The notes beneath the pieces are model-generated. The model made no database searches, had not been told where the DNA came from, and worked only from the letters and a program-made list of their open reading frames with translations. Positions 1,372-58,964 of a DNA stretch of 64,000 nucleotides are shown here, in pieces (position 1 is the stretch's first letter; the number at the start of each line of letters is the position of its first letter). A program made the translations under genes and the position numbers. The stretch is taken from the NCBI GenBank assembly GCA_031280685.1, contig JAITGM010000035.1, forward strand, positions 107,282 through 171,281, read 5' to 3'. The DNA comes from Christensenellaceae bacterium. GTDB lineage: Bacteria; Bacillota; Clostridia; Christensenellales; UBA1750.

Positions 1372-2260
1372 ATGAAAATCGAAAGGCTAAAGAAGGGCGA
1401 TATCATCGGCATCGTTTGCCCAAGCATGATTCCGAATCCGGAACGGCTTGAGCGCAATAGGCGGACGCTGAACGCATTGGGGTACCGCGTGCAATTCGGC
1501 GAGAACGTATTGAAAAAACATCCACGGCTACCTGGCCTCAGAGCGTGAACGGGCTGATGATTTCAACTCGATGGTAGCCGATGAAGATGTAAAAATGGTG
1601 CTTTTCGGCGGCGGCGAGGGCGGAAACGAACTCCTTCCGCTGCTGGACTATGAAAAGATCCGGCGCAACCCGAAGTTCTATTGCAGCTTCAGCGACGGGA
1701 CGACGATTCTGAACGTGGTCCACGCGCAAACCGGGCTCCCTGCATACTACGGGCAAGGTCCGGGCATGTTCTACGGCCTTAGATACTATGACTATGCGCA
1801 GTTCCTTGCCCATTTCGCCGAAAGCGGCCCGAAGGAGCGCCTTAAAAACAGCGATTGGCGCACGCTGAGTGGCGGAAGAGGCGAAGGCCTCCTTATCGGC
1901 GGCTATTTGCGCAACTTTGCCCTGCTCCTTGGCAGCCGTTATTTTTATTACGATGGCCAAGAAGACTACCTCTTGTTTTTGGAGGATCATGAGCGGTTCA
2001 GCAACGTCGCAAAACTGAGTTCCTTTCTTTCGCACATCGAGCAGAACGACTTCATCCGGCGGGTTTCTGGGTTAATCTTTGGCCATTACGCGGAAAGCGT
2101 GCCGGGCGACCTGCTCAGGCGCCTGGAGCGCTTTGGGGAAAAGCATGGCATTCCCGTGGTCTATTGCGACGATTTTGGACACGACGTGAACCACGCCATC
2201 TTCCCGATCGGCAGGCGCGCCGCGCTGAACGCGGAGGAGCAAAGCCTGCGCTACGGCTGA
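1372..2260 (+). pseudogene. LD-carboxypeptidase (peptidase S66, LdcA/MccF-like) split by a frameshift in an A6 run
   Basis: The N-terminal frame (MKIERLKKGDIIGIVCPS...GENVLKK) stops at 1548. The next frame reads IHGYLASERERADDFNSMVADEDVKMVLFGGGEGG...SFSDGTT to 2260. The junction lies in AAAAAA 1513-1518, and removing one A gives a continuous ORF. Confidence 0.75.
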
Positions 2261-2377
2261 GCTTTGCGCCGCCCCGCTTCAAGATCAATCCAAAGGCAGA
2301 AAAAGCAAAAAGCGGCGCTTTGCGGGCGGTGCTTTTTTTGATACAATGGAGCAAAACAGCGCGAGGAGGCTTTGCCT

Positions 2378-3562
2378 TTGGACGAGATTTTGAACCTGCA
2401 CATCAACGAGATGGCGGGCGCGGAGTTTGACTGCAGCTGCGGCCGCCGCCACGGCTTCCCCATCCGGCACCTGCACATCGGCCCTGGCGTTTTGCCTGAG
2501 CTTTTAGGCGTTCTTCGGCCATTTTTGGGCAAGAAGCTCTTCATCTTCGGCGATGGCAACACCTTCAGGGCAGCGGGCGAGAGGGTCGTGGCGCTGCTGA
2601 GGGGCGCCGGGCACGACCTTGACGAGTTTTGGTTCCAAACCGGCGAAAACGAGGCCTTGATCCCCAACGAAAGCGCGCTTGGCCGCCTTTTGATGGAGAT
2701 GGGCCAGGCCGAACTGATCCTTGGCGTGGGTTCTGGCACGATCAACGACCTGGGCAAGTTCATTTCGCGCCAGTCGGGCCGCCCGCACATCATCGTCTGC
2801 ACGGCCCCCTCGATGGACGGCTATGTTTCTGACTCTTCCGCGCTGACCAACGCGGGCAGGAAGATTTCCTACCCCTCGGCCCTGCCCTTTGCCGTGATCG
2901 CCGATGCCGAAATCTTAAAAAACGCGCCGCAGCGCCTCGTGCAGGCCGGCTTTGGTGATGTTTTGGGCAAGCTGACGGCGCTTGCCGACTGGCGGCTTTC
3001 GAAGGAACTAACCGGCGAGTATTATTGCGAAAGCTGCGTAAAGCTCGTGCAAAAGGCGCTGAAAGCCGTGACGAAAAACGTGGACGCCATCCGCGAGCGG
3101 CGCGACGAGGGCATCGACTACCTCATTCAGGCGCTGGTGCTCACCGGGGTCGCAATGTCTTTGGTCGGGGTCTCGCGGCCTGCCTCGGGCGCCGAGCACA
3201 TGCTCTCGCACCACTGGGAGATGGACTTTCAAAAGCGCGGCCTTTTCGCCGATCTGCACGGCATCAAGGTCGGGGCCGCCACGCCGGTGGTGGCCGAGCT
3301 TTTCGAGCTGCTCAAGGATGAGCTTCCCAAAGAGGCGCTGGCCCTCGCGCCGACCAGGGCGGAATGCGAAAGGCTGCTGCTTGCCGTAGGCGCGCCGGCT
3401 TCGCCCAAGGATGTGCACATTGACCGCGAGCTGTTTCAGCAAAGCCTGCACGAAGCCTACACGATCCGCAAGCGCTACTCGATCCTGCAGCTTGCCATCG
3501 AGAAGGGCAGGATGGACGAAATCGCTGCCGCTATGACGGAGCGCATCTACGGCAAGGCCTAA
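2378..3562 (+). CDS. sn-glycerol-1-phosphate dehydrogenase-like protein (AraM/EgsA family, iron-ADH fold)
   Basis: GVGSGTINDLGKF...CTAPSMDGYVS...AGFGDVLGK..ALADW...GAEHMLSHHWE. The TTG at 2378 sits 8 nt after GGAGG; the ORF-track start 2372 is too close to the RBS. Confidence 0.65.
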   Translation: MDEILNLHINEMAGAEFDCSCGRRHGFPIRHLHIGPGVLPELLGVLRPFLGKKLFIFGDGNTFRAAGERVVALLRGAGHDLDEFWFQTGENEALIPNESALGRLLMEMGQAELILGVGSGTINDLGKFISRQSGRPHIIVCTAPSMDGYVSDSSALTNAGRKISYPSALPFAVIADAEILKNAPQRLVQAGFGDVLGKLTALADWRLSKELTGEYYCESCVKLVQKALKAVTKNVDAIRERRDEGIDYLIQALVLTGVAMSLVGVSRPASGAEHMLSHHWEMDFQKRGLFADLHGIKVGAATPVVAELFELLKDELPKEALALAPTRAECERLLLAVGAPASPKDVHIDRELFQQSLHEAYTIRKRYSILQLAIEKGRMDEIAAAMTERIYGKA

Positions 3563-3592
3563 ACCATCCAAAAGAGAAGGCGAGGTGATTCC

Positions 3593-5254
3593 ATGGGCGT
3601 TTTGCTTGGCGTTGATTTTGGCACGCTCTCGGCCAGGGCGGTCCTGGTTTCGGCCAAGGATGGCGAAATCCTGGGCGAATCCTCCTTCAGCTACCCCCAT
3701 GGCGTGCTCGACCGCGAGCTGCCGGGCGGCATTGCCCTGCCGGCAGACTGGGCGCTGCAGCACCCGAACGACTACCTGCTGGCCCTGCGCGGGGCAATCG
3801 CAGGGGCGCTCAAAGCCGCCAGGCTCACGCCGCGCAATGTCGTGGGGCTGGGGATCGATTTTACCTCCTGCACGGCGGTCGCGGCGGACGGGGAGGGCGT
3901 GCCGCTATGCTTAAAGGCGGAGTTGCAAAACCGGCCCCATGCCTACCCAAAGCTCTGGAAGCACCACGCCGCCCAGCCCCAGGCAGACCGAATGACGGCC
4001 CTGGCCAGGGAGCGCGGCGAGCCTTGGCTACCCCTCTATGGCGGCAGGATTTCATCCGAGTGCCTTTTGCCAAAGGCTCTGCAGGTCTTGGAGGAAGACC
4101 CCGAGGTCTATGCGGCGGCGGAGCTCTTTATCGAGGCCGGGGACTGGATGACCTTCTTGCTGACCGGCGAGCTTGGCCGTAATGCCTGCATGGCTGGTTA
4201 CCGCGCCCTTTGGGACGGCGCGTACCCTTCGCCCGAATTCTTCGGCGCGCTTAACCCGGGCTTTGAAGGCATCGAAGGCAAGCTTCAGGGGGCAGTTTTG
4301 CCGCTGGGCAGCCAGGCCGGGCAAATCGGCGCGCGCGGCGCCGCCATTTCGGGCCTGCTGCCCGGCACGCCGGTGGCCGCCGCGGTCCTGGACGCGCACG
4401 CCGGCATGGCGGCCGCCGGCATCGCCCAAACGGGCAAGCTCTTGCTCGTGATGGGCACATCGACTTGCCACCTGGTGCTGGGGGACGCGCAAAGGGCCGT
4501 GCCCGGCATCTGCGGCGCGGTGAAGGATGGCATGATCCCTGGCTTTTATGGTTTTGAGGCGGGGCAGAGTTGTGTGGGCGACGCCTTTTCGTGGTTCCTG
4601 CAAAACTGCCTGCCCGGGGAGCTGCAAAGGGAGGCCGAGGGCAGGCAGATCAGCCCCCACGCGCTGCTGCGCGAGCGCGCCCTGGGGCTGCTCCCCGGCG
4701 AGAGCGGGCTGTTGGCGCTGGATTGGTGGAACGGCAGCCGCACCCCGCTCATCGACGGGGACTTGAGCGGCGTGCTCTTCGGGCTGAGCCTGCGCACGAG
4801 GCCCGAGGAAATCTATCGCGCCCTAATAGAGGGCAGCGCCTTTGGGACGAGGAAGATCATCGAGAACTACCGCGAAAACGGGGTCGCGGTTAGCGAACTC
4901 ATCGCTTCTGGCGGCATCGCCCATAAGGATCCGATGATGATGCAGATCTATGCCGACGTCTGCGGGCTGCCTCTGCGCGTGGCTCAAACGCGGCAGGGCG
5001 GGGCGTTGGGCGCCGCGCTCTTCGCCGCGGTCGCTTCCGGCGAGCACGGGGATCTTTTTGCCGCCATGAAGGCTATGGTGAAGCCGCCAACCGCGGAATA
5101 CCGGCCGGTTTCGCGCAACCACAAGCTTTATGGCAAGCTCTACGCCCAGTATCTGCGGCTGCACGATCTCTTCGGGCGGGGCGAAGACGGCGCGGTGAAG
5201 GCGCTGCGCGCGATCTCTCGCGAGGCGGCCGCGCTCAGCAAGATTAGGGAATAA
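3593..5254 (+). CDS. araB: L-ribulokinase (FGGY carbohydrate kinase)
   Basis: 553 aa. GVDFGTLSARAVLV...LPADWALQHPNDY...GIDFTSCT...PHAYPKLWKHHAAQPQADR...YGGRISSE closely tracks the Bacillus AraB N-terminal pattern. Confidence 0.8.
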   Translation: MGVLLGVDFGTLSARAVLVSAKDGEILGESSFSYPHGVLDRELPGGIALPADWALQHPNDYLLALRGAIAGALKAARLTPRNVVGLGIDFTSCTAVAADGEGVPLCLKAELQNRPHAYPKLWKHHAAQPQADRMTALARERGEPWLPLYGGRISSECLLPKALQVLEEDPEVYAAAELFIEAGDWMTFLLTGELGRNACMAGYRALWDGAYPSPEFFGALNPGFEGIEGKLQGAVLPLGSQAGQIGARGAAISGLLPGTPVAAAVLDAHAGMAAAGIAQTGKLLLVMGTSTCHLVLGDAQRAVPGICGAVKDGMIPGFYGFEAGQSCVGDAFSWFLQNCLPGELQREAEGRQISPHALLRERALGLLPGESGLLALDWWNGSRTPLIDGDLSGVLFGLSLRTRPEEIYRALIEGSAFGTRKIIENYRENGVAVSELIASGGIAHKDPMMMQIYADVCGLPLRVAQTRQGGALGAALFAAVASGEHGDLFAAMKAMVKPPTAEYRPVSRNHKLYGKLYAQYLRLHDLFGRGEDGAVKALRAISREAAALSKIRE

Positions 5255-5277
5255 AAAAGCAAAAGGGGAAGGAAAAC

Positions 5278-5739
5278 ATGCAAAAAAGCATCTTAATCGG
5301 CTGCGATAACGCGGCCACGAACCTAAAAAAAACGGTGAGCGACTTTTTGGCGGCCCAGGGTTACGAAATCGAGGATATTGGCTGCGACGGCCCCGGCGAC
5401 CTGACCGTTTACCCCGAAATCGCCCGCAGGCTCTGCGGGAAGATGCAGGCGGAAGGCTTTTCGCGGCGCGGAATCCTGCTCTGCGGCACGGGGCTGGGCA
5501 TGTGCATAAGCGCCAACAAGTTCAAGGGCGTCCGCGCGACCGTCTGCCACGATGCCTACTCGGCCGAGCGCTCGATCCTTTCGAACGATGCGAATCTCCT
5601 CTGCATGGGCGAGCGCGTCGTGGGGCCCGAGCTGGCCAAGAAGGTCGTGGGCGAGTGGATTTCGCTGAGCTTCAAGGATGGCAGCTCGACCGAGAAGGTC
5701 GAGGCCATCAAGGCGATCGAAGGGGAAATGATGAGGTAA
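5278..5739 (+). CDS. rpiB: RpiB/LacA/LacB family sugar-phosphate isomerase
   Basis: 153 aa. CGTGLGMCISANKFKGVRA..CHD.YSAERS..SNDANLLCMGERVVG. Confidence 0.85.
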   Translation: MQKSILIGCDNAATNLKKTVSDFLAAQGYEIEDIGCDGPGDLTVYPEIARRLCGKMQAEGFSRRGILLCGTGLGMCISANKFKGVRATVCHDAYSAERSILSNDANLLCMGERVVGPELAKKVVGEWISLSFKDGSSTEKVEAIKAIEGEMMR

Positions 5740-5821: not shown

Positions 5822-5833
5822 ATTGGCAGGGAA

Positions 5834-6885: not shown

Positions 6886-7824
6886 ATGCCCGTCAAGGTT
6901 CAAGACAATCTGCCAGCCAGGGAGATTTTACAAAACGAGAACATCTTCGTGATGACCTCGTCCAGGGCCGATATGCAGGATATTCGCCCCCTTTACATCG
7001 CGGTTTTGAACCTGATGCCCACCAAGGAGGTCACCGAAACGCAGCTTCTGCGCGTGATCGGCAACACGCCGCTTCAGGTCGAGCTCGTCTTTTTGCACAC
7101 GGCCACCCACGTTTCTAAAAATACCCCGCGCGAGCATCTTTCGGCCTTTTATAAGACCTTTGACGAGGTGAAAGACCGCAAGTTCGACGGGCTGATCATC
7201 ACCGGCGCGCCCGTGGAACAGCTCGAATACGAGAGCGTGAACTATTGGCAGGAACTGACCACCATCATGGATTGGGCGCAAAAGCACGTTTTTTCCACGC
7301 TTTATATTTGCTGGGCTGCGCAGGCCGGGCTGTATTACCGCTATGGCGTGCCCAAATACCCGCTTGAAAGCAAGATGCACGGCGTTTTTGCCCATAAGGT
7401 GCTCGACCGCCGCGCGCCCCTGCTGCGCGGCTTCGACGATGTCTTCAACGCGCCGCATTCCAGGCACACTGAACTGCGCCAGAGCGACATCGAAAAAATC
7501 AACGAGCTGCAAATCCTCAGCGTTTCAGAGGAAGCCGGGGTGTATCTCGTCGTTTCAAGGGACGGCAAGCAGGTCTTCGTCACCGGCCACAGCGAATACG
7601 ACGCGGATACGCTGAAGAAGGAGTATGAGCGCGACCGCGCGAAGGGGCTGGGCATTCCGGTGCCCCGGCATTATTTCCCGAACGACGACCCGTCGCGGGA
7701 GCCGCTGGTGACCTGGCGCTCGCACGCGAACCTGCTCTTTGCCAACTGGCTGAACTACTACGTCTACCAAGAAACGCCGTTTGACCTGAACGCCGTCGGT
7801 TCGGCGGGCGAAAACGCGACATAA
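6886..7824 (+). CDS. metA: homoserine O-acyltransferase MetA
   Basis: Start moved to [23 protein letters not shown]...[16 protein letters not shown]; 312 aa. The ORF-track start 6712 adds an implausible leader. Confidence 0.9.
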
Positions 7825-7888
7825 AAAGCAAAATACAGGCTAAAAGGGACGGAGGCGGCAAGGAGAAGAAATTTCTTTAGCCGCCCTG

Positions 7889-7939
7889 TTGCATTTTCGG
7901 CGTGGGCGGGGTATACTATGGTAGTCAAAGATAGTCAAA
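7889..7939 (+). promoter_or_regulatory. ctsR operon promoter with perfect CtsR operator
   Basis: TTGCAT (7889-7894), 17 nt, TATACT (7912-7917). The direct repeat AGTCAAA-GAT-AGTCAAA (7923-7939) follows immediately. Confidence 0.85.
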
Positions 7940-7958
7940 GTCAGAATGGAGTGACGGC

Positions 7959-8414
7959 ATGACGGGCGGGATCAGTGACAGCATCGAGCGCTTCATCAAA
8001 GAGCTGCTGCGCGCGCAAGGCGAGGTGCTCGACCTGCAGCGGAACGAGTTGGCTGCCCAGTTCCGCTGTGCGCCATCGCAAATCAACTACGTGCTCTCTA
8101 CGCGCTTCACGGCGGACCACGGTTACCGGATCGAGAGCCGCAGGGGCGGCGGCGGCTATATTCGCATCGTCCGCATCGATATCGACAAGGCTTCCAAGCT
8201 CAAGGCACTGGCCGAAGGCATGAGCGAATCCCTCAAGGCCGAAGAAAGCGCGGCGCTGCTGCTCGGGCTGCTGCGGGCCGGGCTGCTCGGCCCAAGGGAG
8301 GCTGCGCTGGTGCAGAGCATGCTGGCGGAAGAGCTTCTGCCCGGCGAAGCGGGCGAAAGGCTGCGGGCGCGGCTTCTCAAAAGCGCGCTGGGCCTTTTGC
8401 AGAACCATCAATAA
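7959..8414 (+). CDS. ctsR: class III stress-gene repressor CtsR
   Basis: 151 aa. SDSIERFIKELL...SQINYVLSTRFT.DHGYRIESRRGGGGYIRI. Confidence 0.9.
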   Translation: MTGGISDSIERFIKELLRAQGEVLDLQRNELAAQFRCAPSQINYVLSTRFTADHGYRIESRRGGGGYIRIVRIDIDKASKLKALAEGMSESLKAEESAALLLGLLRAGLLGPREAALVQSMLAEELLPGEAGERLRARLLKSALGLLQNHQ

Positions 8415-8480
8415 AAGAGGGCCAAAACGGATTCAAACAAAAAAGAGGGCGAAAGGCCTGAAAAGGGAGGGCGAAAAAGG

Positions 8481-8963
8481 ATGCTGTGTGAGGAATGCGG
8501 AATCAACACGGCCAATGTGCGCTTTACGACCGTGATGGGCGGCAAGGTTTATGAAAAGAGGCTTTGCGCGCAGTGCCTGGCGAAGAAAAAGCACGAGCTT
8601 GCCGAGGGGATCTCGGTTGGCGATCTTCTTTCCGGCTTTTTGCACGAAAGCGCTGCCATGCAGGAGGAAAACCTCGTCTGCCCGGGCTGCAAGATGAGCT
8701 ATGAGGACTTTAAGCGCGGCGGCCGCTTCGGCTGCGCGCGCTGCTACGAGAGCTTCAAACCCTATTTGGAGCCGATGCTCTCGAAGATACACGGCAGGGT
8801 CAAGCACGCAGGCAAGGTGCCAAGGGCGCACGCCGTGCGCCAGAGCGACGAAGAGGTCTTGCAGATCCTCAAAAGCGAAATGGAGCGAGCCGTCGAGGTT
8901 GAGGACTTTGAGCGGGCGGCCAAGCTTCGGGATGAGATCAAGGAATTCAAGGGGGAAGGCTGA
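8481..8963 (+). CDS. mcsA: McsA, activator of protein-arginine kinase (zinc-finger plus UVR domain)
   Basis: MLCEEC...CAQC / CPGC...CARC cysteine pairs, and a C-terminal UVR-like EDFERAAKLRDEIKEFK. Confidence 0.85.
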   Translation: MLCEECGINTANVRFTTVMGGKVYEKRLCAQCLAKKKHELAEGISVGDLLSGFLHESAAMQEENLVCPGCKMSYEDFKRGGRFGCARCYESFKPYLEPMLSKIHGRVKHAGKVPRAHAVRQSDEEVLQILKSEMERAVEVEDFERAAKLRDEIKEFKGEG

Positions 8964-8965
8964 GC

Positions 8966-9952
8966 ATGGCGGAGCACGCAATCGCGCTTTCATCCAGGGT
9001 GCGCCTGGCGCGCAACTATGGCGAAATCCCCTTCCCCGCGGGCATGAGCGCCGCGAACGCCGCCCGTGTGGCCGAAAAGGTCATGGGCAGCCTGGCCGGC
9101 TGCTCTGGGCTTGAGCCCATCCACAAGGTGAACATGGCCGAACTTTCGGCCGTGGCCAGGCAGGAGCTCGTCGAACGCCATATGATTTCGACAGAGCTCG
9201 CCAATAAAGACGAGGGCTTCCTGGTCGAGATTTTGAACGGCCAGATCTGCCTGATGGTCAACGAAGAGGATCATTTGCGCATCCAGGCCATTTTACCGGG
9301 GCTGGAGCTTGGCCGGGCCATGGACTTGGCCAACAAGGTGGACGACGTGCTCGAGGAGGGCGGCTACGCCTTCGACGGCAGGCTAGGCTACCTCACCGCA
9401 TGCCCCACGAATACGGGCACGGGCATGCGCGCCTCGGTGATGCTGCACCTGCCGGCGCTGACGATGCTCTCGCAGATGGGGCCCATCATTCGCACGGTTT
9501 CGCGCATCGGGCTGACGGTACGCGGCCAGTACGGCGAAGGCTCGGAGGCGAGCGGCAATCTCTATCAGCTCAGCAACCAAATCACGCTCGGCCGCAACGA
9601 GAGCGAGATTCTCCACCTCTTGGGCGAGTCCGCCATCCAGGTCATCGCCAAGGAAGCCGAGGCCAGGCGCGAGCTGCTGAACAAGAACGCCCTGAGCCTG
9701 GAAGACCGCCTCATGCGCTCTTACGGCATCTTCAAAAACGCCAGGCGCATGGACGTGAAGGAGTTCATGCAGAGGATTTCCGACATTCGCCTGGCCGCGG
9801 ACCTGGGCTTTTTGGACTTGGCGCAGCGGGAGCTGGATACACTACTGCTTGCCGCGCAGCCGGCCGCCATTCAGCGCCGGCTGGGACCGGAAGCCAGCAA
9901 GGAAGAAATTGATTTTGAGCGGGCGAAGCTCATTCGCCGCTCGCTCGCATAA
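8966..9952 (+). CDS. mcsB: protein-arginine kinase McsB (ATP:guanido phosphotransferase)
   Basis: 328 aa. SSRVRLARN...NEEDHLRIQ...[15 protein letters not shown]...LSNQITLG. Confidence 0.9.
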
Positions 9953-9978
9953 GCTTTTTGATAAGGGAGGATATGAAC

Positions 9979-12447
9979 ATGGCTGCTTTTTTCGATAAAT
10001 TCACCAAAAACGCACAAAGGGTGCTCTATGTGGCCCAGCAGGAGGCAAAAAGGCTGGGGCATAACTACGTGGGGACCGAGCATATCCTGCTTTCTATCGT
10101 CAAGGAAGAGGGCATGGCGGGCGATGTGCTGCACCAGATCGGGCTGAGCGACGAACTCGTCAACGAATCGATCCTGCACCTGATCGGCAAGGGTAACTAC
10201 CAGTTTTCGGATGCCTTCGGCTACACCCCGCGCACCAAGAAGGTGCTGGAGCTGAGCATGAAGGAAGCAAAGAACGTAGGCGCCTCCTATGTGGGCACCG
10301 AGCACATCCTGCTTTCGCTCTTCAAGGAAAACGAAGGGGTGGCGGCGCATGTGCTGCGCGAGCTGGGAGCCGATCCCAAGCAGCTTTACGGCCAACTGAC
10401 CGAGGCTCTTTCGCAAAACGGCGGCGGGCACGGCCAGGGCAGGCAAGAAAGTGGCGAGAGCGCGGAGCAGGGCGGAGACACTCCGGTGCTCAAAAAGTAC
10501 GGCCGCGACCTGACCGAGGCCGCGCGCAACGAGGAGCTTGACCCGGTGATCGGCCGCGCCGAGGAGATCGAGCGCATCATCCAAATCCTTTCGCGCAGAA
10601 CGAAGAACAACCCGGTGCTCATCGGCGAGCCCGGCGTGGGTAAGTCTGCGGTGGTCGAAGGGCTGGCCCAGCGCATCATCGATGGGAACATCCCCGAGCT
10701 GCTGCGCGGCAAGCGCGTCATCACCCTTGACCTGCCAGGCATGCTCGCCGGCGCGAAATACCGCGGCGAATTCGAAGAAAGGCTTAAGGGCGCGCTCGAA
10801 GAACTCAAGCGCAGCAAAGAGAGCATCCTCTTTATCGACGAACTGCACACCATCGTGGGCGCAGGCGCGGCCGAGGGCGCGATCGACGCCGCAAACATCC
10901 TAAAACCCGCGCTGGCGCGGGGCGAAATCCAGTGCATCGGCGCCACGACCATAGACGAATACCGCAAGCACATCGAAAAGGATTCGGCGCTCGAGCGCAG
11001 ATTCCAGCCCGTGACCGTGGGCGAGCCGAGCCTTGACGAAGCGATCGCCATCTTAAAGGGTCTGCGCGACCGTTACGAGGCGCACCATAGGGTACGCATC
11101 ACCGACGAAGCCATCCAGGCTGCCGTTACCCTCTCAGATCGCTATATTTCCGACCGGTTTTTGCCCGATAAGGCCATCGACCTGGTCGATGAAGCCTGCT
11201 CCAGGCTCAGGCTCAAGTCCTTCACCACCCCGCCGGACATGAAAGAAGACGAGGTGAAGCTTGAAGAACTCAAGAAGGAAAAGGACGAAGCCATCGCCCA
11301 TCAGCGCTTCGAAGAGGCCGCAAGCGTGCGCGACGAGGAGCAAAAGCTGAAGGCGCAGATGGAGGAAAGGCGCAAAGAATGGGAAAACAGCGTCAACACC
11401 TCCACTCGTGAGGTCGGCGAGGAAGAGATCGCGCAGATTGTGGCGCTTTGGACCCACATTCCCGTGATGAAGCTGACCGAGAGCGAGTCCGAACGGCTCC
11501 TGAACCTCGAAAGCATCCTGCACGACAGGGTCGTCGGCCAGGGCGAGGCGGTTTCGGCTGTGGCGCGTGCCGTGCGCAGGGCCCGGGCAGGGCTAAAGGA
11601 TCAAAAACGGCCAATCGGCTCCTTCATCTTCCTTGGCCCCACCGGTGTGGGCAAGACCGAACTTTGCAAGGCGCTGGCCGAAGCGATGTTCGGCGATGAG
11701 GACGCGCTTGTGCGCATAGACATGTCTGAGTACATGGAAAAGCACGCGGTTTCGCGTATGATCGGCTCGCCACCAGGCTACGTGGGCTACGACGAAGGCG
11801 GCCAGCTCACCGAGGCCGTGCGCCGCAAGCCTTATTCGGTCATCCTCTTTGACGAGATAGAGAAGGCCCACCCGGACGTGTTCAACATCCTGCTGCAAAT
11901 CCTTGAAGACGGCAGGCTGACCGACTCGCAGGGCCGCACGGTGGACTTTAAAAACACCATCACCGTCATGACCTCAAACGTCGGCGCGTCTGCCGTGGGC
12001 AAGGCCCGCGCGATGGGCTTCAACAGCGGCGACGAGAGCCAGCAGGGTTACGAGCGGATGCGCGACGTAATGATGGAGGAGCTCAAGCGCGCCTTCAGGC
12101 CCGAGTTCATCAACCGGGTCGATGAAATCATCGTTTTCCACCAGCTCGACCAAGGGAATATCCACTCCATCGCCTCTTTAATGCTCAAAACCGTCGCCAA
12201 GCGCTTAGCTGAACGCGGCATCGAACTCGAATGGGATGAAGAGGTGTTGAACTACCTGGCGAAGGAGGGCTTCGACGAACTCTACGGCGCAAGGCCGCTG
12301 CGCAGGGCAATCCAGCGCAAGGTAGAGGACGCTTTGAGCGAGGAAATCCTCTCGGGCCGCATCGAACTTTCGAGCAGGGTCGGGATGACAGTCGAGGAAG
12401 GGGAGCTTAAGTTCCGCGCGCTCGAGAAAATCGAGGCGGTCGGCTAA
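9979..12447 (+). CDS. clpC: ATP-dependent Clp protease ATPase subunit ClpC
   Basis: N-terminal Clp repeats (VGTEHILLS twice), Walker A motifs GEPGVGKSA and GPTGVGKTE, and a UVR-like middle region. The start could be 9958, 9973 or 9979; 9979 has the best spacing from GGGAGG. Confidence 0.93.
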
Positions 12448-15336: not shown

Positions 15337-15365
15337 TTGAAAAAACCTGAAAAGCGTGCTATACT
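15337..15365 (+). promoter_or_regulatory. extended -10 promoter driving the ORF-free structured region
   Basis: TTGAAA (15337-15342), 17 nt, TGC-TATACT (TG extension at 15357-15358, -10 at 15360-15365). Confidence 0.6.
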
Positions 15366-15371
15366 GGCACA

Positions 15372-35216: not shown

Positions 35217-35249
35217 GGCAAATGAGGGCGAAAGTGCAAAAAGACCCCG

Positions 35250-37863: not shown

Positions 37864-37876
37864 AAAAGGCGTTAAA

Positions 37877-40459: not shown

Positions 40460-40480
40460 ACGGCAAAACGAAGGGGGCGG

Positions 40481-45815: not shown

Positions 45816-45901
45816 TCCCAAGCAGCGGGGCTGTAAAATAAACGATGCGCCGCGGCAGCTTTTTTGCCGCGGCGCATTTCAATGGTTTTGGGGTAAGAAA
45901 A

Positions 45902-46933: not shown

Positions 46934-46944
46934 GGCGGTCAGCT

Positions 46945-48171: not shown

Positions 48172-48212
48172 AGCCCGAATCAAGGGCCTGAAAGGGGGAT
48201 GTCTCCCTGAAT

Positions 48213-48864: not shown

Positions 48865-48921
48865 CAAAACGCACAAAAAGCCCCGCATAAGCGGGGCTTT
48901 TTGTGCGTTAAGGGGCCGTTT

Positions 48922-51662: not shown

Positions 51663-51902
51663 GTGAAGCTTTCGGTTTGCGGCATTGATTGCGACGCCTG
51701 CAGGTTTGCGAGCGAGCGAAACTGCCCGGGCTGCCGCGCGCAAGAAGGGAAGCCCTTTTGGGGGAGCTGTGCGCTCTACGCCTGCGCGGCGGAAAAAGGC
51801 CTTCCGCACTGCGGGAAGTGCGGCGAATTCCCCTGCTCCACGCTGCGGGAGTGGGCGTCCGCCGAGAATCCGGAGCGCATAGACAACCTAAGAAAGTCAT
51901 GA
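51663..51902 (+). CDS. small cysteine-rich protein (DUF3795-like)
   Basis: 79 aa, GTG start after GGAGGGGGG. CGIDCDACRF...CPGCR...C..YAC...GL.HCGKCGEFPC. Confidence 0.6.
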   Translation: MKLSVCGIDCDACRFASERNCPGCRAQEGKPFWGSCALYACAAEKGLPHCGKCGEFPCSTLREWASAENPERIDNLRKS

Positions 51903-51922: not shown

Positions 51923-52472
51923 ATGCGGTATTCCAAGGTTCACAAGCTGAAAAAGGGCGGCGAAACGATCGAGCTGCGCAGTGCGGGCGCAGGGGACGCG
52001 GAGGCGATGATCGCGCTGCTGAACAGGGTCGATCGGCAAACGAAATACCTTTCGCGCGAGCCTGGCGAGTTCCTCGCCAGCTTGGAGGATGAGGCAAATT
52101 GGCTCAGAAACACCGAAAACGATGAAAAAAGCCTGCAACTCATCGCTTTTTATGGGGACGAGGCCGTAGGTGCCTGTGGAATTTCGCCCATTTCGCTGAA
52201 GCGGCGCTTTTTGCACAGGGCCAGCCTTGGCATGATGGTGGAGCAGAGCCTTTGGGGGCGAGGCCTTGGCCGCCTGATGCTGGAAGAGAGCATCGAGCTT
52301 TGCAAAAAGGCTGGTTTTGAGCAGGTTGAGCTCGAGGTGACGGCGGGAAAACCTGCGGGCGATCGCGCTGTATTTAAGCTGCGGTTTTGAAGTGCTGGGG
52401 CGGATACCAAACGCGCTGAAGTATGCGGACGGCAGCCGGGCAGCACTCTATTCTATGGTGAAGACGCTTTAG
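51923..52472 (+). pseudogene. GNAT N-acetyltransferase with a C-terminal frameshift in an A4 run
   Basis: MRYSKVHKLK...GRGLGRLMLEESIELCKKAGFEQVELEVTAG, then a stop at 52390. The alternate frame reads NLRAIALYLSCGFEVLGRIPNALKYADGSRAALYSMVKTL, ending at 52472. The junction is at GGAAAACC (A-run 52348-52351). Confidence 0.7.
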
Positions 52473-52544: not shown

Positions 52545-53480
52545 TTAAGCCTCTTGGAACAAGGGGGTAGAAAGATAGCGCTCGCCGGTATCGGGCAGGA
52601 TGACCACGATGGTCTTGCCCGCGAACTCGGGGCGCTTGGCAAGCTCGGTGGCCGCGTGCAGCGCCGCGCCAGAGGAGATGCCGACCAGCAGGCCCTCTGC
52701 CTTAGACAGCGCGCGGGCTGCCTTGAAGGCGTCTTCGCTCGCGACCTTGAGGACCTCGTCATAGACTGCGGTGTTCAGTACGCCGGGCACGAAACCCGCA
52801 CCGATGCCCTGGATCTTATGCGGGCCGGGATTGCCGCCGGAAAGCACCGGGGAATCGGCCGGCTCGACAGCAAAGACCTGAACGGAAGCCTTTTTGCTCT
52901 TTAAATATTCGCCCACGCCGGTCACCGTGCCGCCGGTGCCGACGCCTGCTACGAGAACATCCACGGCGCCATCGGTATCTTCCCAAATTTCGGGGCCGGT
53001 GGTTTCCTTATGCACCTTGGGGTTTGCGGGATTGTCGAACTGGCTGGGGATGAAGGAGTTCGGGATCTCGCCAGCCAGCTCCTGGGCCTTGGTGATGGCG
53101 CCCTTCATACCCTTAGCGCCCTCGGTCAGAACGAGCTCCGCGCCATAGGCCTTGAGCAGGTTGCGTCGCTCGACTGACATGGTTTCGGGCATGGTGAGGA
53201 TGATCTTATAGCCGCGCGCCGCCGCGACGGCGGCCAGACCAATGCCGGTATTGCCCGAGGTCGGCTCGACGAGGGTGGCGCCGGGCTTTAGCGCGCCGCT
53301 TTTTTCGGCATCGTCGATCATCGCCAGGGCGATGCGGTCCTTCACGCTGCCGGCCGGATTGAAGTATTCGAGCTTCGCCACGATCTTCGCGCCGTAGACT
53401 TGGGTCTTTGCGTAGCCCTTAAGCTCGAGAAGGGGGGTCTTGCCGATGAGTTCCGTCAGGCTGCCATAGATTTTTGCCAT
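52545..53480 (-). CDS. cysK: cysteine synthase A (O-acetylserine sulfhydrylase)
   Basis: 311 aa. [14 protein letters not shown] (PLP lysine), [20 protein letters not shown]. Confidence 0.93.
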
Positions 53481-53500
53481 GTTATCGTCCTCCTTGACAC

Positions 53501-53528
53501 ATAAGCATATCTTATAGATATGTCTTAT
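53501..53528. promoter_or_regulatory. imperfect palindrome in the cysK leader (candidate Rrf2/CymR operator)
   Basis: ATAAGCATATCT-TAT-AGATATGTCTTAT. The arms differ by one inserted base. It lies between the predicted cysK -10 and its RBS. Confidence 0.4.
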
Positions 53529-53545
53529 ATGAATTATTTGCTCCC

Positions 53546-53574
53546 AGTATATGCGCCGGCCATTGCTTTGTCAA
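53546..53574 (-). promoter_or_regulatory. sigma-A type promoter for cysK
   Basis: On the minus strand: TTGACA (53574-53569), 17 nt, TATACT (53551-53546). Confidence 0.55.
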
Positions 53575-53614
53575 CCCCATTAATGCGGATTAAACATACT
53601 CTTTCGCCAGAGTA

Positions 53615-53653
53615 TTGACAGTGCGGCATAAAAAACTTATAATCACATATAAG
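53615..53653 (+). promoter_or_regulatory. promoter of the Rrf2 regulator gene with overlapping palindrome
   Basis: TTGACA (53615-53620), 17 nt, TATAAT (53638-53643). The palindrome CTTATA-ATCAC-ATATAAG (53636-53653) shares the CTTATA/TATAAG half-sites seen at 53501-53528. Confidence 0.5.
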
Positions 53654-53677
53654 CTTTATGGGAAAAGAGGTTAAGCG

Positions 53678-54115
53678 ATGCGAATTTCCGCAAAGGGGCG
53701 CTATGCCTTAGCCGCAACGGTCTTCATGGCCCAGCAATATCCAAAGAAGGAGCCCATCACGGTCATCTTCATGTCCACAGCGCTGGGGATTTCAAAGATT
53801 TACTTAGAGCAGGTCTTTTCGCTGCTGAAAAAGGCCGGGCTGGTGCGCTCGGTCAAGGGCTCGCAGGGGGGGTATCAATTGAACGGCGAGCCCGCGCAAT
53901 TGACCGCCTACGATGTTCTTTTGGGGGTGGAAGGCGCGCTCTTTGAGCCGGCAAGCCCTGCGGTCGCCGAGTTCGCGCCCGAAATCGACCGCGCAATCCT
54001 GGATGCGGCCTTCACCCCCGCGGATGCAGCTTTGAAAGAGGCCCTGGGCGCCGTGACGCTTGAGCGCCTGGCGCTTGAAGCCCAGCGCGGACAAAGCCCG
54101 ATGTACTACATTTAA
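53678..54115 (+). CDS. cymR: Rrf2-family transcriptional regulator, CymR-like
   Basis: 145 aa. MRISAKGRYAL......I....GIS..YLEQVFS.L.KAGLV.S.KG..GGY.L. It has no Cys triad (unlike IscR), its C-terminus ...MYYI resembles Bacillus CymR, and it is adjacent to cysK and C-S lyases. Confidence 0.65.
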   Translation: MRISAKGRYALAATVFMAQQYPKKEPITVIFMSTALGISKIYLEQVFSLLKKAGLVRSVKGSQGGYQLNGEPAQLTAYDVLLGVEGALFEPASPAVAEFAPEIDRAILDAAFTPADAALKEALGAVTLERLALEAQRGQSPMYYI

Positions 54116-54153
54116 GAGAGCCATCGGGCAGACGATGGCCAGGAGGGGAAACC

Positions 54154-55290
54154 ATGGAGTTTGAAACGCTTTGCGTGCATGGCGACGAAAAGGCCTATGA
54201 GCCGACCGGAGCGCTGAGCATGCCCATCTACCAAAGCGCGACCTTTTCGCACCCGGGGCTTGGGGTAAGCTCCGGCTATGACTACTCGCGCCTGCAAAAC
54301 CCCACGCGCGAGCACGCCGAGAACCTGCTGTGCAAGCTGGAGGGCGGAGTGGACGCCCTCGCCTTCTCATCCGGAATGGCCGCGATCGCCGCGCTGATGG
54401 AGCTGTTTTCCCCGGGCGAGCACTTCATCTTTTCGGATGATATCTATGGCGGCTCCTACCGTCTTTTTTCGAGCATCAACCGAAAGAACGGCCTAAAAAG
54501 CAATAGCGTGAACACCTCGGACTTTGAGGCGGTCGCGGCTGCGATCCGCCCAAACACCAAGGCGATCTTCGTGGAAACGCCCACAAACCCGATGATGCAG
54601 GTCAGCGACATCGCGCGGATTGCCACCCTTTGCAAGCAAAAGGGGCTTCTCCTCATCGTGGATAATACCTTTTTAACGCCCTACTTCCAGCGCCCGCTGG
54701 AAATAGGGGCGAGCATCGTGGTGCACTCAGCGACGAAGTACCTGGGCGGGCATAACGACACCTTGGCCGGCTTCTTGGTCGCGGGCAGCGCGGAACTTTC
54801 TGAAAAATTGCGTTTTATCTTCAAGACGACGGGAGCGGGCCTCGCCCCCTTTGATAGCTGGCTGATTGCCAGAGGCATCAAGACCCTGGCCGTACGCATG
54901 GATCGCCAGCAGGAAAGCGCCTTGCGCCTGGCCGGCTGGATGCGCGGGCAGAGGAAAATCCGAGCGGTGCACTATGTGGGGCTGCCCGAGCATCCAGGCT
55001 ACGCCATCTCAAAAAAGCAGGCGAGCGGCTTTGGCGCGATGATCTCGTTCGAGCTCGACTCTCAAGAGAGCGCCAAGCGGGTTTTGGAGAGCGTGCGGCT
55101 CATTCGCTTTGCCGAAAGCTTGGGCGGCGTGGAATCCCTCGTCACCTACCCCTATTTGCAAACCCATGCCGATATTCCCGTGGAAACCCGTAAGGCGAAG
55201 GGCATCGGCGATACGCTCCTGCGCCTTTCGGTCGGCCTTGAATCGGCAAACGACCTGATCACGGACCTTGACGCTGCCCTAAACGGCTAA
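54154..55290 (+). CDS. Cys/Met-metabolism PLP enzyme (cystathionine gamma-synthase/gamma-lyase/beta-lyase family)
   Basis: 378 aa. ...PIYQSATF...YSRLQNPT...HSATKYLGGHNDTLAG (PLP lysine). Confidence 0.85.
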   Translation: MEFETLCVHGDEKAYEPTGALSMPIYQSATFSHPGLGVSSGYDYSRLQNPTREHAENLLCKLEGGVDALAFSSGMAAIAALMELFSPGEHFIFSDDIYGGSYRLFSSINRKNGLKSNSVNTSDFEAVAAAIRPNTKAIFVETPTNPMMQVSDIARIATLCKQKGLLLIVDNTFLTPYFQRPLEIGASIVVHSATKYLGGHNDTLAGFLVAGSAELSEKLRFIFKTTGAGLAPFDSWLIARGIKTLAVRMDRQQESALRLAGWMRGQRKIRAVHYVGLPEHPGYAISKKQASGFGAMISFELDSQESAKRVLESVRLIRFAESLGGVESLVTYPYLQTHADIPVETRKAKGIGDTLLRLSVGLESANDLITDLDAALNG

Positions 55291-55311
55291 AACATGCCCG
55301 GAGGAAAAGCC

Positions 55312-56484
55312 ATGCCCTTTGATTTTGACAGAATCACCCCGCGGAAAGGCACCGCGTCGCTCAAATACGACTTTCACGAGCGCCGAGGCAAGCCGAAGGA
55401 TGCCCTGCCCCTTTGGGTGGCGGATATGGACTTTCCCGCGCCGCCGGCTGTGCTGCAGGCCTTGCGGGCGCGCGTGGGGCACGGTATCTTTGGCTATACC
55501 CAGCCCGGGCCCGAGTATTTCCTTACCCTTAAGCGCTGGTTTTCGGGGCGTTTCGGCTGGGAAGTGGAGGAGGACTGGCTCGTCAGGACGCCAGGGGTCG
55601 TCTTCGCCCTCTCGATGGCGGTGCGTGCCTTCACAAAACCCGGCGAAGCGGTGCTCATCCAGGAGCCCGTTTATTACCCATTCTCAAGCGTGGTGCACAA
55701 AAACGGCAGAAAGCTCGTCGTCAACCAGCTCGCCTTCGACGGCGAGCGCTACTCCATCGACTTTGACGATTTCGAGGGGAAGATCGCCGCCGAAGGCGTG
55801 AAGCTCTTCATCCTTTGCAATCCGCACAACCCGGTCGGCCGGGTTTGGCGCGAGGAGGAACTGCTTCGCCTGGGTGAAATCTGCAAGCAGCACGGCGTTT
55901 TGGTCGTGGCTGACGAAATCCATCAGGACTTCGTTTACGAGGGGCACCGGCACCTCGTTTTTGCGGCGCTAAGGCCCGAATTTTCCTCCTTTAGCCTAAC
56001 CTGCACCGCGCCTACGAAGAGCTTCAACCTGGCAGGCCTGCAGATTTCGAACATCTTCATTCCAAACGGGGAACTGCGCCAAGCCTTTGCGCGGGAAATC
56101 GACGCGACCGGCTATGACGAGCCCAGTCTCATGGGGGTTCTGGCCTGCATGGCTGCCTATGAGCAGGGCGGCCCCTGGCTGGATGAGCTGAAGGCCTATT
56201 TAAAGGGAAATCTCGAGTTTTTGCGGGCCTTCTTGACGAAAATGCCGCAAACGCGGCTCATCGAGCCTGAAGGCAGCTATTTGGTCTGGCTGGACTTTCG
56301 GGCGACGGGTATGGAGGGCGAGAAACTCGACCGTTTCGTGCTCGAGGAAGCCGGTCTTTGGCTCGATGCGGGCGAGATGTTCGGAAAGGGCGGCGAAGGC
56401 TTCCAGCGCGTGAACATCGCCTGCCCGCGTGCCCTGCTGCAAGAGGCGCTTGAGCGCCTTGAAGCCGCCCTACGGCGGCTCTGA
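55312..56484 (+). CDS. patB: MalY/PatB-type C-S lyase (class I/II aminotransferase fold)
   Basis: Start at MPFDFDRITPRKGTASLKYDF (GGAGGA RBS). ...LWVADMDF...NPHNPVGRVW...TKSFNLAGL. Confidence 0.8.
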   Translation: MPFDFDRITPRKGTASLKYDFHERRGKPKDALPLWVADMDFPAPPAVLQALRARVGHGIFGYTQPGPEYFLTLKRWFSGRFGWEVEEDWLVRTPGVVFALSMAVRAFTKPGEAVLIQEPVYYPFSSVVHKNGRKLVVNQLAFDGERYSIDFDDFEGKIAAEGVKLFILCNPHNPVGRVWREEELLRLGEICKQHGVLVVADEIHQDFVYEGHRHLVFAALRPEFSSFSLTCTAPTKSFNLAGLQISNIFIPNGELRQAFAREIDATGYDEPSLMGVLACMAAYEQGGPWLDELKAYLKGNLEFLRAFLTKMPQTRLIEPEGSYLVWLDFRATGMEGEKLDRFVLEEAGLWLDAGEMFGKGGEGFQRVNIACPRALLQEALERLEAALRRL

Positions 56485-56516
56485 CGCCGGCGCGAAAAAC
56501 GAGGAGAGTTTTGCGA

Positions 56517-57046
56517 ATGCCCCTGCCTATTTCCATCGAACTGCATTTTGATCCCCAATCCACGGCCCCAACCCAGGCCTATATCGAACAGGCGGCGGAG
56601 ACCAGCGGGAACGACTACATGCCGCAGCATCGCATTCCCCCGCACTTGACGCTGGCCTTCTTTGGAAACCGACCAATTGGGATTGCCCTCGAGCAGGTCG
56701 TGGCGCGCAAGGGGCTCTTTCGCGCAGAACGGCTCGTTTTCCCCGTGATTGCGGCGTTCGTGCCCAGCATGCTCTTCCTGGTCCCTAAGCAGAGTGAATG
56801 CCTTGCGATGCTCAACCATGAGATTTGCACTGGTTTGGGCGAAATCGCAAGCCCCGCCGACCCGTTTTATTTGCCCAAAAGCTGGGTTCCGCATCGCTCG
56901 ATCGCGGTTCGGCTTGAGTGCGTGCGCTAGGCTCGGCGTTTGCAGCGCTCGCCGGGCGGTTCAGGCCGCTGGCCGCGACGATCGCGAGCGTTTCGGTCAT
57001 CAAATGCGAGCCCTATAGCGAAACGGTTTGGGAGTATAAGCTATGA
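56517..57046 (+). pseudogene. 2H phosphoesterase (LigT-like) gene with a frameshift near 56918-56930
   Basis: Two HxT/S motifs (PPHLTLAF, VPHRSIAV), then a stop at 56930. The C-terminal VRALGSAFAALAGRFRPLAATIASVSVIKCEPYSETVWEYKL continues in another frame to 57046. The junction sits in GTGCGTGCGC. Confidence 0.5.
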
Positions 57047-57218
57047 GATGGCGCGGGAGGCGTCTTGCTCCGCGTCTTTCCGCCGCAGGCTGCCGATCTA
57101 GCCGCAGGCTGCTCTTCTCGCGCGGGCGATGCGCACCCTTCGGCTTTTCAGCGTTGTTACGACGGATCTGCGACCCCGCCTCCTCGGCTGACTTTGGTGT
57201 GGTTCACGCCCCGCAAAA

Positions 57219-57247
57219 CTTGACGCGCCGCGCGCTTTCGATTATGA
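57219..57247 (+). promoter_or_regulatory. sigma-A type promoter upstream of a small ORF and murG
   Basis: TTGACG (57219-57224), 17 nt, TATGAT (57242-57247). Confidence 0.5.
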
Positions 57248-57464
57248 TGGCGGAGGAAAAGCCCATTGTAAGATTGAATGCGCGCGATTTTTTGCGTGTT
57301 TCCGCATCCTTTTGAAGGGAGAAGAGCGCCATGGCGAGCAAGAACAAGACGAGCTTGAACGAGGGGGCGAAGAATGCTGCGGCTTTGCGCGGCATAAGCC
57401 TGTTATTGAAAGGCGGCAACGGCCCTTTGATCCTACTACAAACAGCGTAAAGGAGATTGCGCCA

Positions 57465-58529
57465 TTGAAACGCATCGTGCTCACCGGCGGCGGGACCGCC
57501 GGGCATGTCACCGCAAACCTCGCCCTGATTCCCCATCTGCTGCAGCGGGATTGGGAGATTCACTATATCGGTTCCGAAAACGGCATGGAAAGGGAGCTGG
57601 TTTCGCAGGTGCAAGGCGTGGAATATCACGCCATCGCCACGGGCAAGCTGCGCCGCTATTTTGACTTAAAGAACCTTTCGGATCCCTTCCGGGTCATCAA
57701 GGGCGCGGCGCAGGCGGCTTCCCTTTTGCGCAAGCTGAAGCCTGATTTGGTGTTTTCCAAGGGGGGCTTCGTTTCGGTGCCGGTGGCGCTCGGAGCCTTT
57801 TTCAATGGCGTGCCGCTAATCTGCCATGAATCCGACCTGAGTCCAGGCCTTGCCAACAAGCTTTGCCAGCCCTTTGCCAAGAGGGTTTGCACGGCCTTCC
57901 CAGAAACGGCAAGGCTTTTGAAAAAGGGCGTTTATACGGGCACGCCGCTGCGCGACGAGCTCTTTTTTGGCACTAAAAAAGAAGGGCTGGCCCGCTTTTC
58001 GCTCGATGAAGGCAAGCCGGTTTTAATGGTCACGGGCGGCAGTTCGGGCGCGCTTGCCATCAACAACGCCCTGCGCGAGGCGCTACCATCCCTTTTGCAG
58101 GAATTTCAGGTGCTGCACCTCTGCGGCAAGGGAAACCACTCCGCGCTTTCGATGCGCGGTTACGTAGAGCTTGAATACCTGAGCGACGGCATGGCGGAAG
58201 CCTTCGCCTGCGCGGATCTGCTGGTTTCGCGGGCTGGGGCAAATACGCTCTGCGAGATTTTGGCGCTTCGCAAGCCGAATTTGCTGATCCCTTACCCGAA
58301 GGGATCAACGAGCAGGGGCGACCAAATCGAAAACGCGGCTTCGTTCGAGCAGCGCGGCCTTTCGATGGTGCTGCGGCAAGACGAGCTCAGCGCCGAAACC
58401 CTGGCCGCCGGGGTAAGGGCCCTTTATGCGGGGCGCGAAGGCTTCATCAACGCGATGTGCCGCGAACCCTCGGGCAACGGGCTGAACGCCGTGCTTGAGA
58501 TCATTGAAGAGAGCGCCAAGAAAAGGTAG
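57465..58529 (+). CDS. murG: UDP-N-acetylglucosamine--N-acetylmuramyl-(pentapeptide) pyrophosphoryl-undecaprenol N-acetylglucosamine transferase
   Basis: TTG start 9 nt after AAGGAG. KRIVLTGGGTAGHV, ...HESD..PGLANK..., ...RAGA.T..E. 354 aa. Confidence 0.9.
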   Translation: MKRIVLTGGGTAGHVTANLALIPHLLQRDWEIHYIGSENGMERELVSQVQGVEYHAIATGKLRRYFDLKNLSDPFRVIKGAAQAASLLRKLKPDLVFSKGGFVSVPVALGAFFNGVPLICHESDLSPGLANKLCQPFAKRVCTAFPETARLLKKGVYTGTPLRDELFFGTKKEGLARFSLDEGKPVLMVTGGSSGALAINNALREALPSLLQEFQVLHLCGKGNHSALSMRGYVELEYLSDGMAEAFACADLLVSRAGANTLCEILALRKPNLLIPYPKGSTSRGDQIENAASFEQRGLSMVLRQDELSAETLAAGVRALYAGREGFINAMCREPSGNGLNAVLEIIEESAKKR

Positions 58530-58625
58530 AGGCGAAGGAGAAAAGGGCTTGCACGGCCAAATCGAGCGAGACGCCGCGTATTTGCGCCGCCTGAAGGGTT
58601 TCATCTAAAAAGAATACGGGATTAA

Positions 58626-58964
58626 TCGAGCGGGAGGACTTTTTCGACCAGCCGTGCGGAGTTCTTCTTTCAGCAATGGAACGGCTTGCGGGAAAACCCG
58701 CGCGATGGGGCGACTGCCCGCATAGACGCGCTTTCTTCAAGGAACCGATCAAGGATCCTGGGGCGGGCCGGAAGGCTTGCCCTATTTTCTTGCCGCTGCA
58801 AGGGCGAGGATGCCGACTTTTGCATCACCCACGGCGATGCCGGGGGGCAATGTCGTCACAAACGGAAAGCGGCACTTCCTCGTGGATTGGGACGCGCCGC
58901 AATCGAAGAGTATTTTGACTGTTGGATTGAAGACGATCTTCGCTTTGCCGACCAACTGCCCTGA
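58626..58964 (+). pseudogene. remnant of an APH/choline-kinase-type phosphotransferase gene
   Basis: The catalytic-loop text is spread over two frames: ...GEDADFCITHGDAGG then NVVTNGKRHFLVDWDAP, then back to AAIEEYFDCWIEDDLRFADQLP*. There is no intact N-terminal lobe, RBS or start. The frame switch lies in a G-run (58843-58848). Confidence 0.45.

Follow-up and report, generated by a model that had tools for sequence, protein, structure and literature searches.

Probable pseudogenes in a 64-kb stretch of an uncultured Christensenellaceae genome

We analyzed a stretch of 64 kb of contig JAITGM010000035.1 (hereafter the window, meaning these 64,000 nucleotides as a whole), which belongs to a metagenome-assembled genome (MAG) of an uncultured Christensenellaceae bacterium. 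In this window six genes have interrupted reading frames, namely those for an LD-carboxypeptidase of family S66, an Fpg/Nei-like ('endonuclease VIII') DNA glycosylase, an aldo-keto reductase with a 4Fe-4S domain (AKR-FeS), a class-I-like methyltransferase, a GNAT acetyltransferase and a 2H phosphoesterase. Very probably, these six are genuine pseudogenes that are carried by the dominant genotype of the organism. Five of them are each restored to a complete, stop-free open reading frame (ORF) by exactly one single-base edit; the methyltransferase gene has lost about 110 nt and carries one more frameshift. When the reads that underlie the MAG were assembled independently, the lesions in all six genes were reproduced. 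An earlier note on this DNA had listed seven disrupted genes. For six of these we found homology that runs collinearly across the lesion at the positions claimed, and for the seventh, a supposed remnant of an APH gene, no homology was found. The observation was thus largely correct, and what it describes is ordinary bacterial pseudogenisation, which is of an already known kind and involves no new mechanism or feature.

The sequence examined comprised the window and the 9.2 kb upstream of it (L002), and our gene map contains 59 genes with 56.8 kb of coding sequence. The MAG contig is 181,242 bp long (locus tags LBD02_08205 onward, proteins MDR2515170 to MDR2515215), and the MAG is also held in IMG. 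An affiliation with a series of termite-gut MAGs, suggested by the style of the accessions, was considered and dropped; the literature searched on termite MAGs and on Christensenellaceae yielded nothing specific. The window has a GC content of about 0.59 throughout, and its gene content is of the type found in spore-forming Clostridia, with ctsR-mcsA-mcsB-clpC, OLE RNA and oapA, dxs, recN, mutS2, spmA/B, a SASP gene and murG.

Interrupted reading frames and their repair

The disruptions were checked by three-frame translation and frame splicing, after which the repaired proteins were scanned against Pfam. All seven claimed disruptions are visible in the three-frame translations, with a premature stop after each shift. 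The five repaired single-lesion proteins each gave a single collinear Pfam match that spans the lesion, and the six genes together show what is expected of a bacterial pseudogene, namely collinear homology on both sides of the lesion and a reading frame that is interrupted relative to full-length homologues. In all five single-lesion genes the site of the lesion is a short repeat. Three of these had been described as changes in A/T homopolymers (A6, A7 and A4), which our analysis bears out. The direction of the change was obtained from alignments with homologues for the LD-carboxypeptidase and AKR-FeS genes; for the GNAT gene, the insertion (A3 to A4) was deduced from the fit to the family motif and from the one-base repair.

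The frameshift in the LD-carboxypeptidase gene splits the protein at residue 48 of 295, leaving fragments of 58 and 229 amino acids (aa). Removal of one A restores a 295-aa ORF without stops, which contains both the N- and the C-terminal Peptidase_S66 domains of Pfam. The assignment of the lesion as a +1 change is based on nine homologues (61-70% identity) that have no extra residue at this place. In the glycosylase gene the frameshift results in two overlapping ORFs of 141 and 202 aa, and the lesion is plausibly a change of GGG to GG. After the addition of one base, 275-aa homologues (58-63% identity) become collinear with the repaired protein, which shows the Pfam domains Fapy_DNA_glyco and H2TH. 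The lack of Pro2 in its N-terminal sequence MIELPE was considered as a sign of decay and rejected, as the entire subfamily begins with ML/IE(I/L)PEA.

One base added to the AKR-FeS gene gives a 401-aa ORF with Aldo_ket_red and Fer4 domains. This repaired protein aligns without gaps across the lesion to the product of an intact paralogue (41% identity, E=3e-93), which is located 2.6 kb from the broken copy and which may provide functional redundancy. Redundancy is also plausible for the GNAT gene, two further GNAT genes being present in the window. Here, the frameshift leads to a 155-aa product that lacks the C-terminal motif N-x-x-A-I-x-L-Y-x-x-x-G-F, and removal of one A yields a 182-aa ORF in which Acetyltransf_1 covers residues 54-156 in one stretch. 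It should be noted here that the apparent gap of 372 nt at 51.5 kb, before the GNAT gene, contains an intact Cys-rich ORF of the DUF3795 family (51663-51902, + strand, 79 aa, E=3e-12), which is absent from the earlier list of genes. In the 2H phosphoesterase gene (2'-5' RNA ligase-like) both HxT/S motifs are located upstream of the lesion, which lies in a GTGC tandem repeat. The addition of one base at 56924 or 56927 completes the ORF, and 2_5_RNA_ligase2 then matches residues 23-161 in one stretch. The 400 nt between this pseudogene and the likely start of murG (57047-57446) gave no family match on either strand.

The methyltransferase gene differs from the other five. Its deletion, of about 110 nt (3n+1), lies after motif I, between 'TAIEIG' and '(Y)SATAFHWI'. 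A phmmer search of 1.84 billion representative proteins retrieved 2,726 homologues, the best of them with lengths of 250-265 aa. The top one (E=4.8e-50, 45% identity, 265 aa) matches in two blocks, residues 4-76 and 67-220 of the query being aligned to residues 2-74 and 102-264 of the homologue, such that about 37 residues are skipped. The spliced protein gave nothing convincing in Pfam, where a weak Methyltransf_11 match was limited to motif I. Because it combines the deletion with a second frameshift, this gene is an older pseudogene than the five with single lesions.

The supposed APH remnant lies in non-coding-like DNA between murG and an intact gene with AraC-HTH and APH domains. It had no match in Pfam (E<=10), in the PDB or among 5.8 billion proteins, and it did not show similarity to the APH-domain gene next to it. 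Moreover, its GC content at third codon positions (GC3) is 0.60, compared to 0.70-0.81 in genes, and no gene was called there on the corresponding contig of the independent assembly. The sole support for a remnant is an HGD...N/DWD motif that has to be spliced across two frames.

Table 1. Pseudogenes, the claimed remnant and two intact genes in the window. Positions are those of the window.
Feature	Position	Strand	Lesion or description
LD-carboxypeptidase (S66) pseudogene	1372-2260	+	extra A at 1513-1518 (A5 to A6)
Fpg/Nei-like glycosylase pseudogene	12519-13348	+	one base lost at about 12734-12736 (GTG CG_ GAC)
Intact AKR + 4Fe-4S paralogue	36706-37863	+	385-aa uninterrupted ORF; precomputed Aldo_ket_red and Fer4 domains
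AKR + 4Fe-4S reductase pseudogene	40481-41685	-	one T lost, T8 to T7 on the coding strand (A7 at 41395-41401)
Class-I-like methyltransferase pseudogene	48213-48864	+	deletion of about 37 residues at 48410-48413; second frameshift at about 48600-48645
GNAT acetyltransferase pseudogene	51923-52472	+	extra A at 52348-52351 (A3 to A4)
2H phosphoesterase pseudogene	56517-57046	+	one base lost within GAGTGCGTGCGCTAG repeat (56916-56930)
Claimed APH remnant	58626-58964	+	non-coding-like DNA
Intact AraC-HTH + APH-domain gene	59051-60364	+	Pfam HTH_18 and APH; MDR2515215.1; directly downstream of the claimed remnant

Read support for the lesions and alternative explanations

The lesions were compared with Logan, an independent k-mer graph assembly (k=31) of run SRR14710902, which uses the same reads as the MAG. 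Six Logan contigs correspond to positions 1-5731, 7175-10629, 33293-42769, 44941-49446, 53204-57075 and 57101-62988 of the window, and they match it with 0 mismatches over 32,929 bp in total. At the DNA level these contigs carry the lesions of the LD-carboxypeptidase, AKR-FeS, methyltransferase and 2H phosphoesterase genes. On contigs identical to the window, genes were called for both LD-carboxypeptidase fragments (SRR14710902_127325), for the AKR-FeS fragments of 275 and 103 aa (SRR14710902_49397) and for the 137-aa 2H product (SRR14710902_7648), and the contig that covers 44941-49446 (SRR14710902_150392) includes both methyltransferase lesions. For the remaining two genes, the 202-aa glycosylase fragment and the 155-aa GNAT product were found as exact Logan proteins. 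Both of these are also recorded in IMG, and NCBI holds the 141-aa glycosylase fragment (MDR2515170.1) and the 155-aa GNAT product (MDR2515208.1). The lesions of all six genes were thus reproduced from the reads. This shows that the lesions are read-supported and that they are not products of the assembler, binning or polishing of the MAG. The earlier preference for genuine pseudogenisation over random error agrees with this identity, with the deletion in the methyltransferase gene and with the homopolymers that remain in frame in intact genes.

Several points nonetheless weigh against the interpretation of all six genes as true pseudogenes. Logan and the MAG share reads, so that a systematic error at the read level would be reproduced in both. 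Two of the lesions are in A6 and A7 runs, where errors are most plausible. Apart from its one lesion, each of the five genes shows perfect conservation, and this lack of an independent sign of relaxed constraint is predicted by recent decay and by error alike. There is no second sample or close relative for checking; by exact-protein look-ups the organism was found, besides the MAG, in one sample only (SRR14710902), and this run accession is not mentioned in the literature searched. Contig identifiers that reach 471,137 and contigs that are error-free over 3-16 kb suggest that SRR14710902 may be a short-read or HiFi metagenome. Furthermore, 'dispensable', the word applied to the broken genes in the earlier note, is a label assigned post hoc, and the length bias on which part of the original argument was built is weak. 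It had been reasoned that random errors should have hit the big genes first. The bias does run in the predicted direction, and the statistic is marginal: with random hits proportional to length in the 59-gene map, P for the five single-lesion genes ranged from about 0.04 (mean length) to 0.09 (maximum length). The same test with all seven genes gave P-values of 0.003-0.03, which are inflated since two of the seven are shortened remnants. The description of the broken genes as small was likewise imprecise, the AKR-FeS gene having 1205 nt, compared to a median of about 900 nt for the intact genes. Stronger evidence than the length bias is provided by the lesion types and by the independent assembly.

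The A6 and A7 runs, the single lesion per gene, the shared reads and the marginal length test are what would favor the alternative that errors in the reads or in the consensus account for some of the five single-base lesions, or for all of them, the genes concerned being intact in the cells. Only the methyltransferase gene, perhaps with the remnant at 58.6 kb, would then be a true pseudogene. We consider this improbable, not only in view of the k=31 assembly that reproduces every lesion, but also in view of the nature and distribution of the lesions. These are not confined to long homopolymers: three of the five single-base lesions occur in runs of at most 4 nt or in a non-homopolymer repeat, and only two of the at least seven lesions are in homopolymers of 6 nt or more. 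Conversely, 61 homopolymers of at least 6 nt within intact genes keep the reading frame, among them five 8-mers (in rpiB, dxs, U32, spmB and cas3), and the 52 kb of coding sequence that is intact contains no lesion. For the LD-carboxypeptidase and the glycosylase, no near-identical allele in intact form was found among 5.8 billion proteins, a collection that includes the Logan gene calls of SRR14710902. Finally, a deletion of about 110 nt together with a second frameshift, as in the methyltransferase gene, is impossible as a base-calling error.

A different possibility is that the lesions are real but polymorphic, the consensus having taken the frameshifted allele from a mixture of strains in which intact alleles co-exist, so that the genes would not be lost from the species. 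The lesions are young, and the Logan contigs are fragmented (3.5-15.7 kb) with breaks outside repeats, for instance at 57075/57101, possibly a sign of branching of the graph. However, for neither the LD-carboxypeptidase nor the glycosylase did the 5.8-billion collection contain an intact protein of at least 90% identity, and the agreement of the Logan contigs with the MAG, without mismatch over 32.9 kb, argues against much strain diversity. This explanation is therefore very improbable. Next to the break mentioned, where one Logan contig ends at 57075 and another begins at 57101, there is a short direct repeat, GCCGCAGGCTGC, in two copies; this may represent local variation or a graph branch.

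It is also conceivable that one or more of the frameshifts are decoded, by programmed ribosomal frameshifting or by transcriptional slippage at the A/T runs, to give a full-length protein. Read in the upstream frame, the lesion in the AKR-FeS gene leaves a perfect slippery heptamer of the type X_XXY_YYZ, U_UUU_UUU (41395-41401), at which a -1 shift would produce the collinear protein. Yet such a recoding site is not conserved, the homologues of the LD-carboxypeptidase and the glycosylase and the AKR-FeS paralogue being encoded by single full-length ORFs, and the 95 nt 3' of the heptamer (-19.2 kcal/mol, z = -0.43) are not more structured than shuffled sequence. Downstream of the heptamer there is only a 6-bp hairpin, 8 nt away. 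The LD-carboxypeptidase and GNAT lesions would moreover require a +1 shift. Efficient transcriptional slippage is associated with runs of 9-10 nt or more, and the A/T runs in question are shorter than this minimum. We consider decoding of the frameshifts extremely improbable. Phase-variable contingency loci were considered as well and rejected. Such loci have a long simple-sequence tract, of typically at least 8-9 units, which lies in the promoter or the 5' part of the coding region of a surface or restriction gene; the tracts found here (A4, A6, A7, GG and 2x GTGC) are too short, they are mostly located in the middle or near the 3' end of the gene, and the genes encode cytoplasmic enzymes.

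With regard to the age of the pseudogenes, no close relatives were found: the best homologues reached 70% identity for the LD-carboxypeptidase and 63% for the glycosylase, and a scan of the GTDB species genomes with PatB gave at most 61% and no usable synteny. A comparison of orthologues can therefore not date the lesions. As the five genes are pristine apart from one lesion each, their inactivations fit recent events. We also counted unique substitutions at otherwise invariant columns, and obtained 8 for the LD-carboxypeptidase, compared to 9 and 9 in equally divergent homologues, and 5 for the glycosylase, compared to 5 and 5. There was no excess, so this test for relaxed constraint was discarded as a means to distinguish recent decay from error.

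Intact genes and other features of the window

As had been claimed, the large genes are uninterrupted. The ORFs that were scanned cover their Pfam profiles from end to end, and the rest have matching precomputed domains. In total, the other 53 genes look intact, with full-length domain coverage for, among others, clpC, dxs, recN, U32, mutS2, amt-PII, the histidine kinase gene, htrA and murG. No further convincing pseudogenes were found in the window, and no protein family was matched in the gaps at 41.7-42.1 and 57.05-57.45 kb. The six broken genes amount to 6 of about 60, or roughly 10%, a figure that is not a genome-wide estimate because the window was chosen for these lesions. The window contains no insertion sequence (IS) elements.

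Two short proteins near the AKR-FeS genes could not be called truncated. One (35825-36523, - strand) has 232 aa and terminates precisely at a Fer4_16 domain. Its matches, which are limited to positions 131-242 of the QueG model (337 positions) and 86-277 of the reductive-dehalogenase model (314 positions), are both far below the cut-offs, and it is either a short QueG- or reductive-dehalogenase-like protein or a truncated one. The other is an HlyD-like adaptor of 283 aa, short for its family, which is translationally coupled to a MacB_PCD/FtsX permease. No gene for a MacB-type ABC ATPase adjoins this pair (42518-44532, + strand); the next ATPase (44697-45815) is of the MalK/MsmX type with TOBE domains.

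Elsewhere in the window, a full-length OLE RNA (RF01071, 476 bits, model positions 1-616) is encoded at 15362-15977 (+ strand), followed by an ORF for a membrane protein, probably oapA (16023-16571, + strand), and then by dxs. Close to the end of the window, five tRNA genes, Val(TAC), Asp(GTC), Phe(GAA), Gly(GCC) and Cys(GCA), are located at 62939-63390 (+ strand). The ORF that runs off the end (63655-64000, + strand) begins with a Cas3 HD domain (PF18019, E=2e-19), and a CRISPR-Cas locus probably starts just past the tRNA cluster. About 2.0-2.6 kb upstream of the start of the window, in the spoIIIA operon (L002, 6631-7203), SpoIIIAF has 61 aa and matches positions 9-43 of a 185-position Pfam profile. 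Directly after its stop codon, and in frame with it, comes the ATG of an ORF of 128 aa whose product resembles a short SpoIIIAG. This sporulation gene may be truncated, or the short form of SpoIIIAF may be natural.

Proposed course of gene decay and comparison with known systems

The lesions would be explained if five genes had each been inactivated by one single-base insertion or deletion at a short repeat, which would be the footprint of replication slippage. The roles affected would be peptidoglycan recycling (LD-carboxypeptidase), base-excision repair (glycosylase), redox reactions (AKR-FeS), acetyl transfer (GNAT) and phosphoester hydrolysis (2H phosphoesterase). In the older methyltransferase pseudogene, the loss of about 110 nt and the additional frameshift would have accumulated, and purifying selection would keep the housekeeping genes of the same 64 kb free of lesions. 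Broken non-core genes would be tolerated until a deletion removes them; most bacterial pseudogenes are reportedly young, the older ones being removed by deletion (Kuo & Ochman 2010). We infer the slippage mechanism, relaxed selection as the cause and the loss of function from the DNA sequence. Predicted functional damage consists of the loss of the GNAT motif, the split of the LD-carboxypeptidase at residue 48 of 295 and the absence of the segment past motif I from the methyltransferase.

These findings have consequences for annotation. In the NCBI record the glycosylase fragments (MDR2515170/71) and the methyltransferase fragments (MDR2515202/03) appear as separate hypothetical proteins, the truncated GNAT protein (MDR2515208) is listed as a normal GNAT protein, and no pseudogene flags are present. 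The fragments should be merged, flagged as pseudogenes and excluded from metabolic reconstructions. In addition, looking up exact proteins in a second, independently made assembly of a run allows frameshifts with read support to be told quickly from artefacts of the assembler.

Of the phenomena to which the lesions can be compared, the indel errors that arise at homopolymers in draft and long-read assemblies resemble the two +1/-1 changes in A6 and A7 that split an ORF in two. They differ in that the lesions described here are mostly outside long homopolymers, are reproduced by a k-mer assembly and include a 110-nt deletion. The U_UUU_UUU heptamer in the AKR-FeS gene is shared with the known cases of programmed -1 frameshifting and of rescue by slippage on poly(A), as in dnaX, IS1/IS3 and endosymbionts (Tamas et al. 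2008), but the AKR-FeS site is not conserved and has no stimulatory structure, the tracts fall short of the length needed and the remaining lesions do not agree with such a scheme. With recently host-restricted, pseudogene-rich bacteria such as Mycobacterium leprae, Sodalis and Shigella, the window has in common a cluster of recent inactivations that includes a repair glycosylase and a cell-wall recycling enzyme. In contrast to those bacteria, it has a GC content of 59%, normal coding density, intact sporulation, stress and regulatory genes, and no IS elements. That the lineage is at an early stage of genome erosion, with about one in ten genes of the window recently inactivated, is unlikely. 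Were a proportion of about 10% found throughout the genome, it would indicate that the effective population size had recently dropped or that the lineage had moved to a restricted niche, such as a host-bound one.

A close parallel is with surveys of pseudogenes in free-living bacteria (e.g. Lerat & Ochman 2005; Kuo & Ochman 2010), which reportedly likewise feature single-base indels at short repeats in non-core and often paralogous genes. In these surveys, as in the window, most cases are young and have a single lesion, a few are older and bear deletions, and the housekeeping genes are spared. The difference is one of density: the pseudogene fraction usually quoted for free-living bacteria is 1-5%, compared to about 10% (6 of about 60 genes) in this one 64-kb stretch, which had been flagged for its lesions. 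The pattern is as one would expect of 'use it or lose it' decay, and it would be of interest only if the 10% density extended over the genome.

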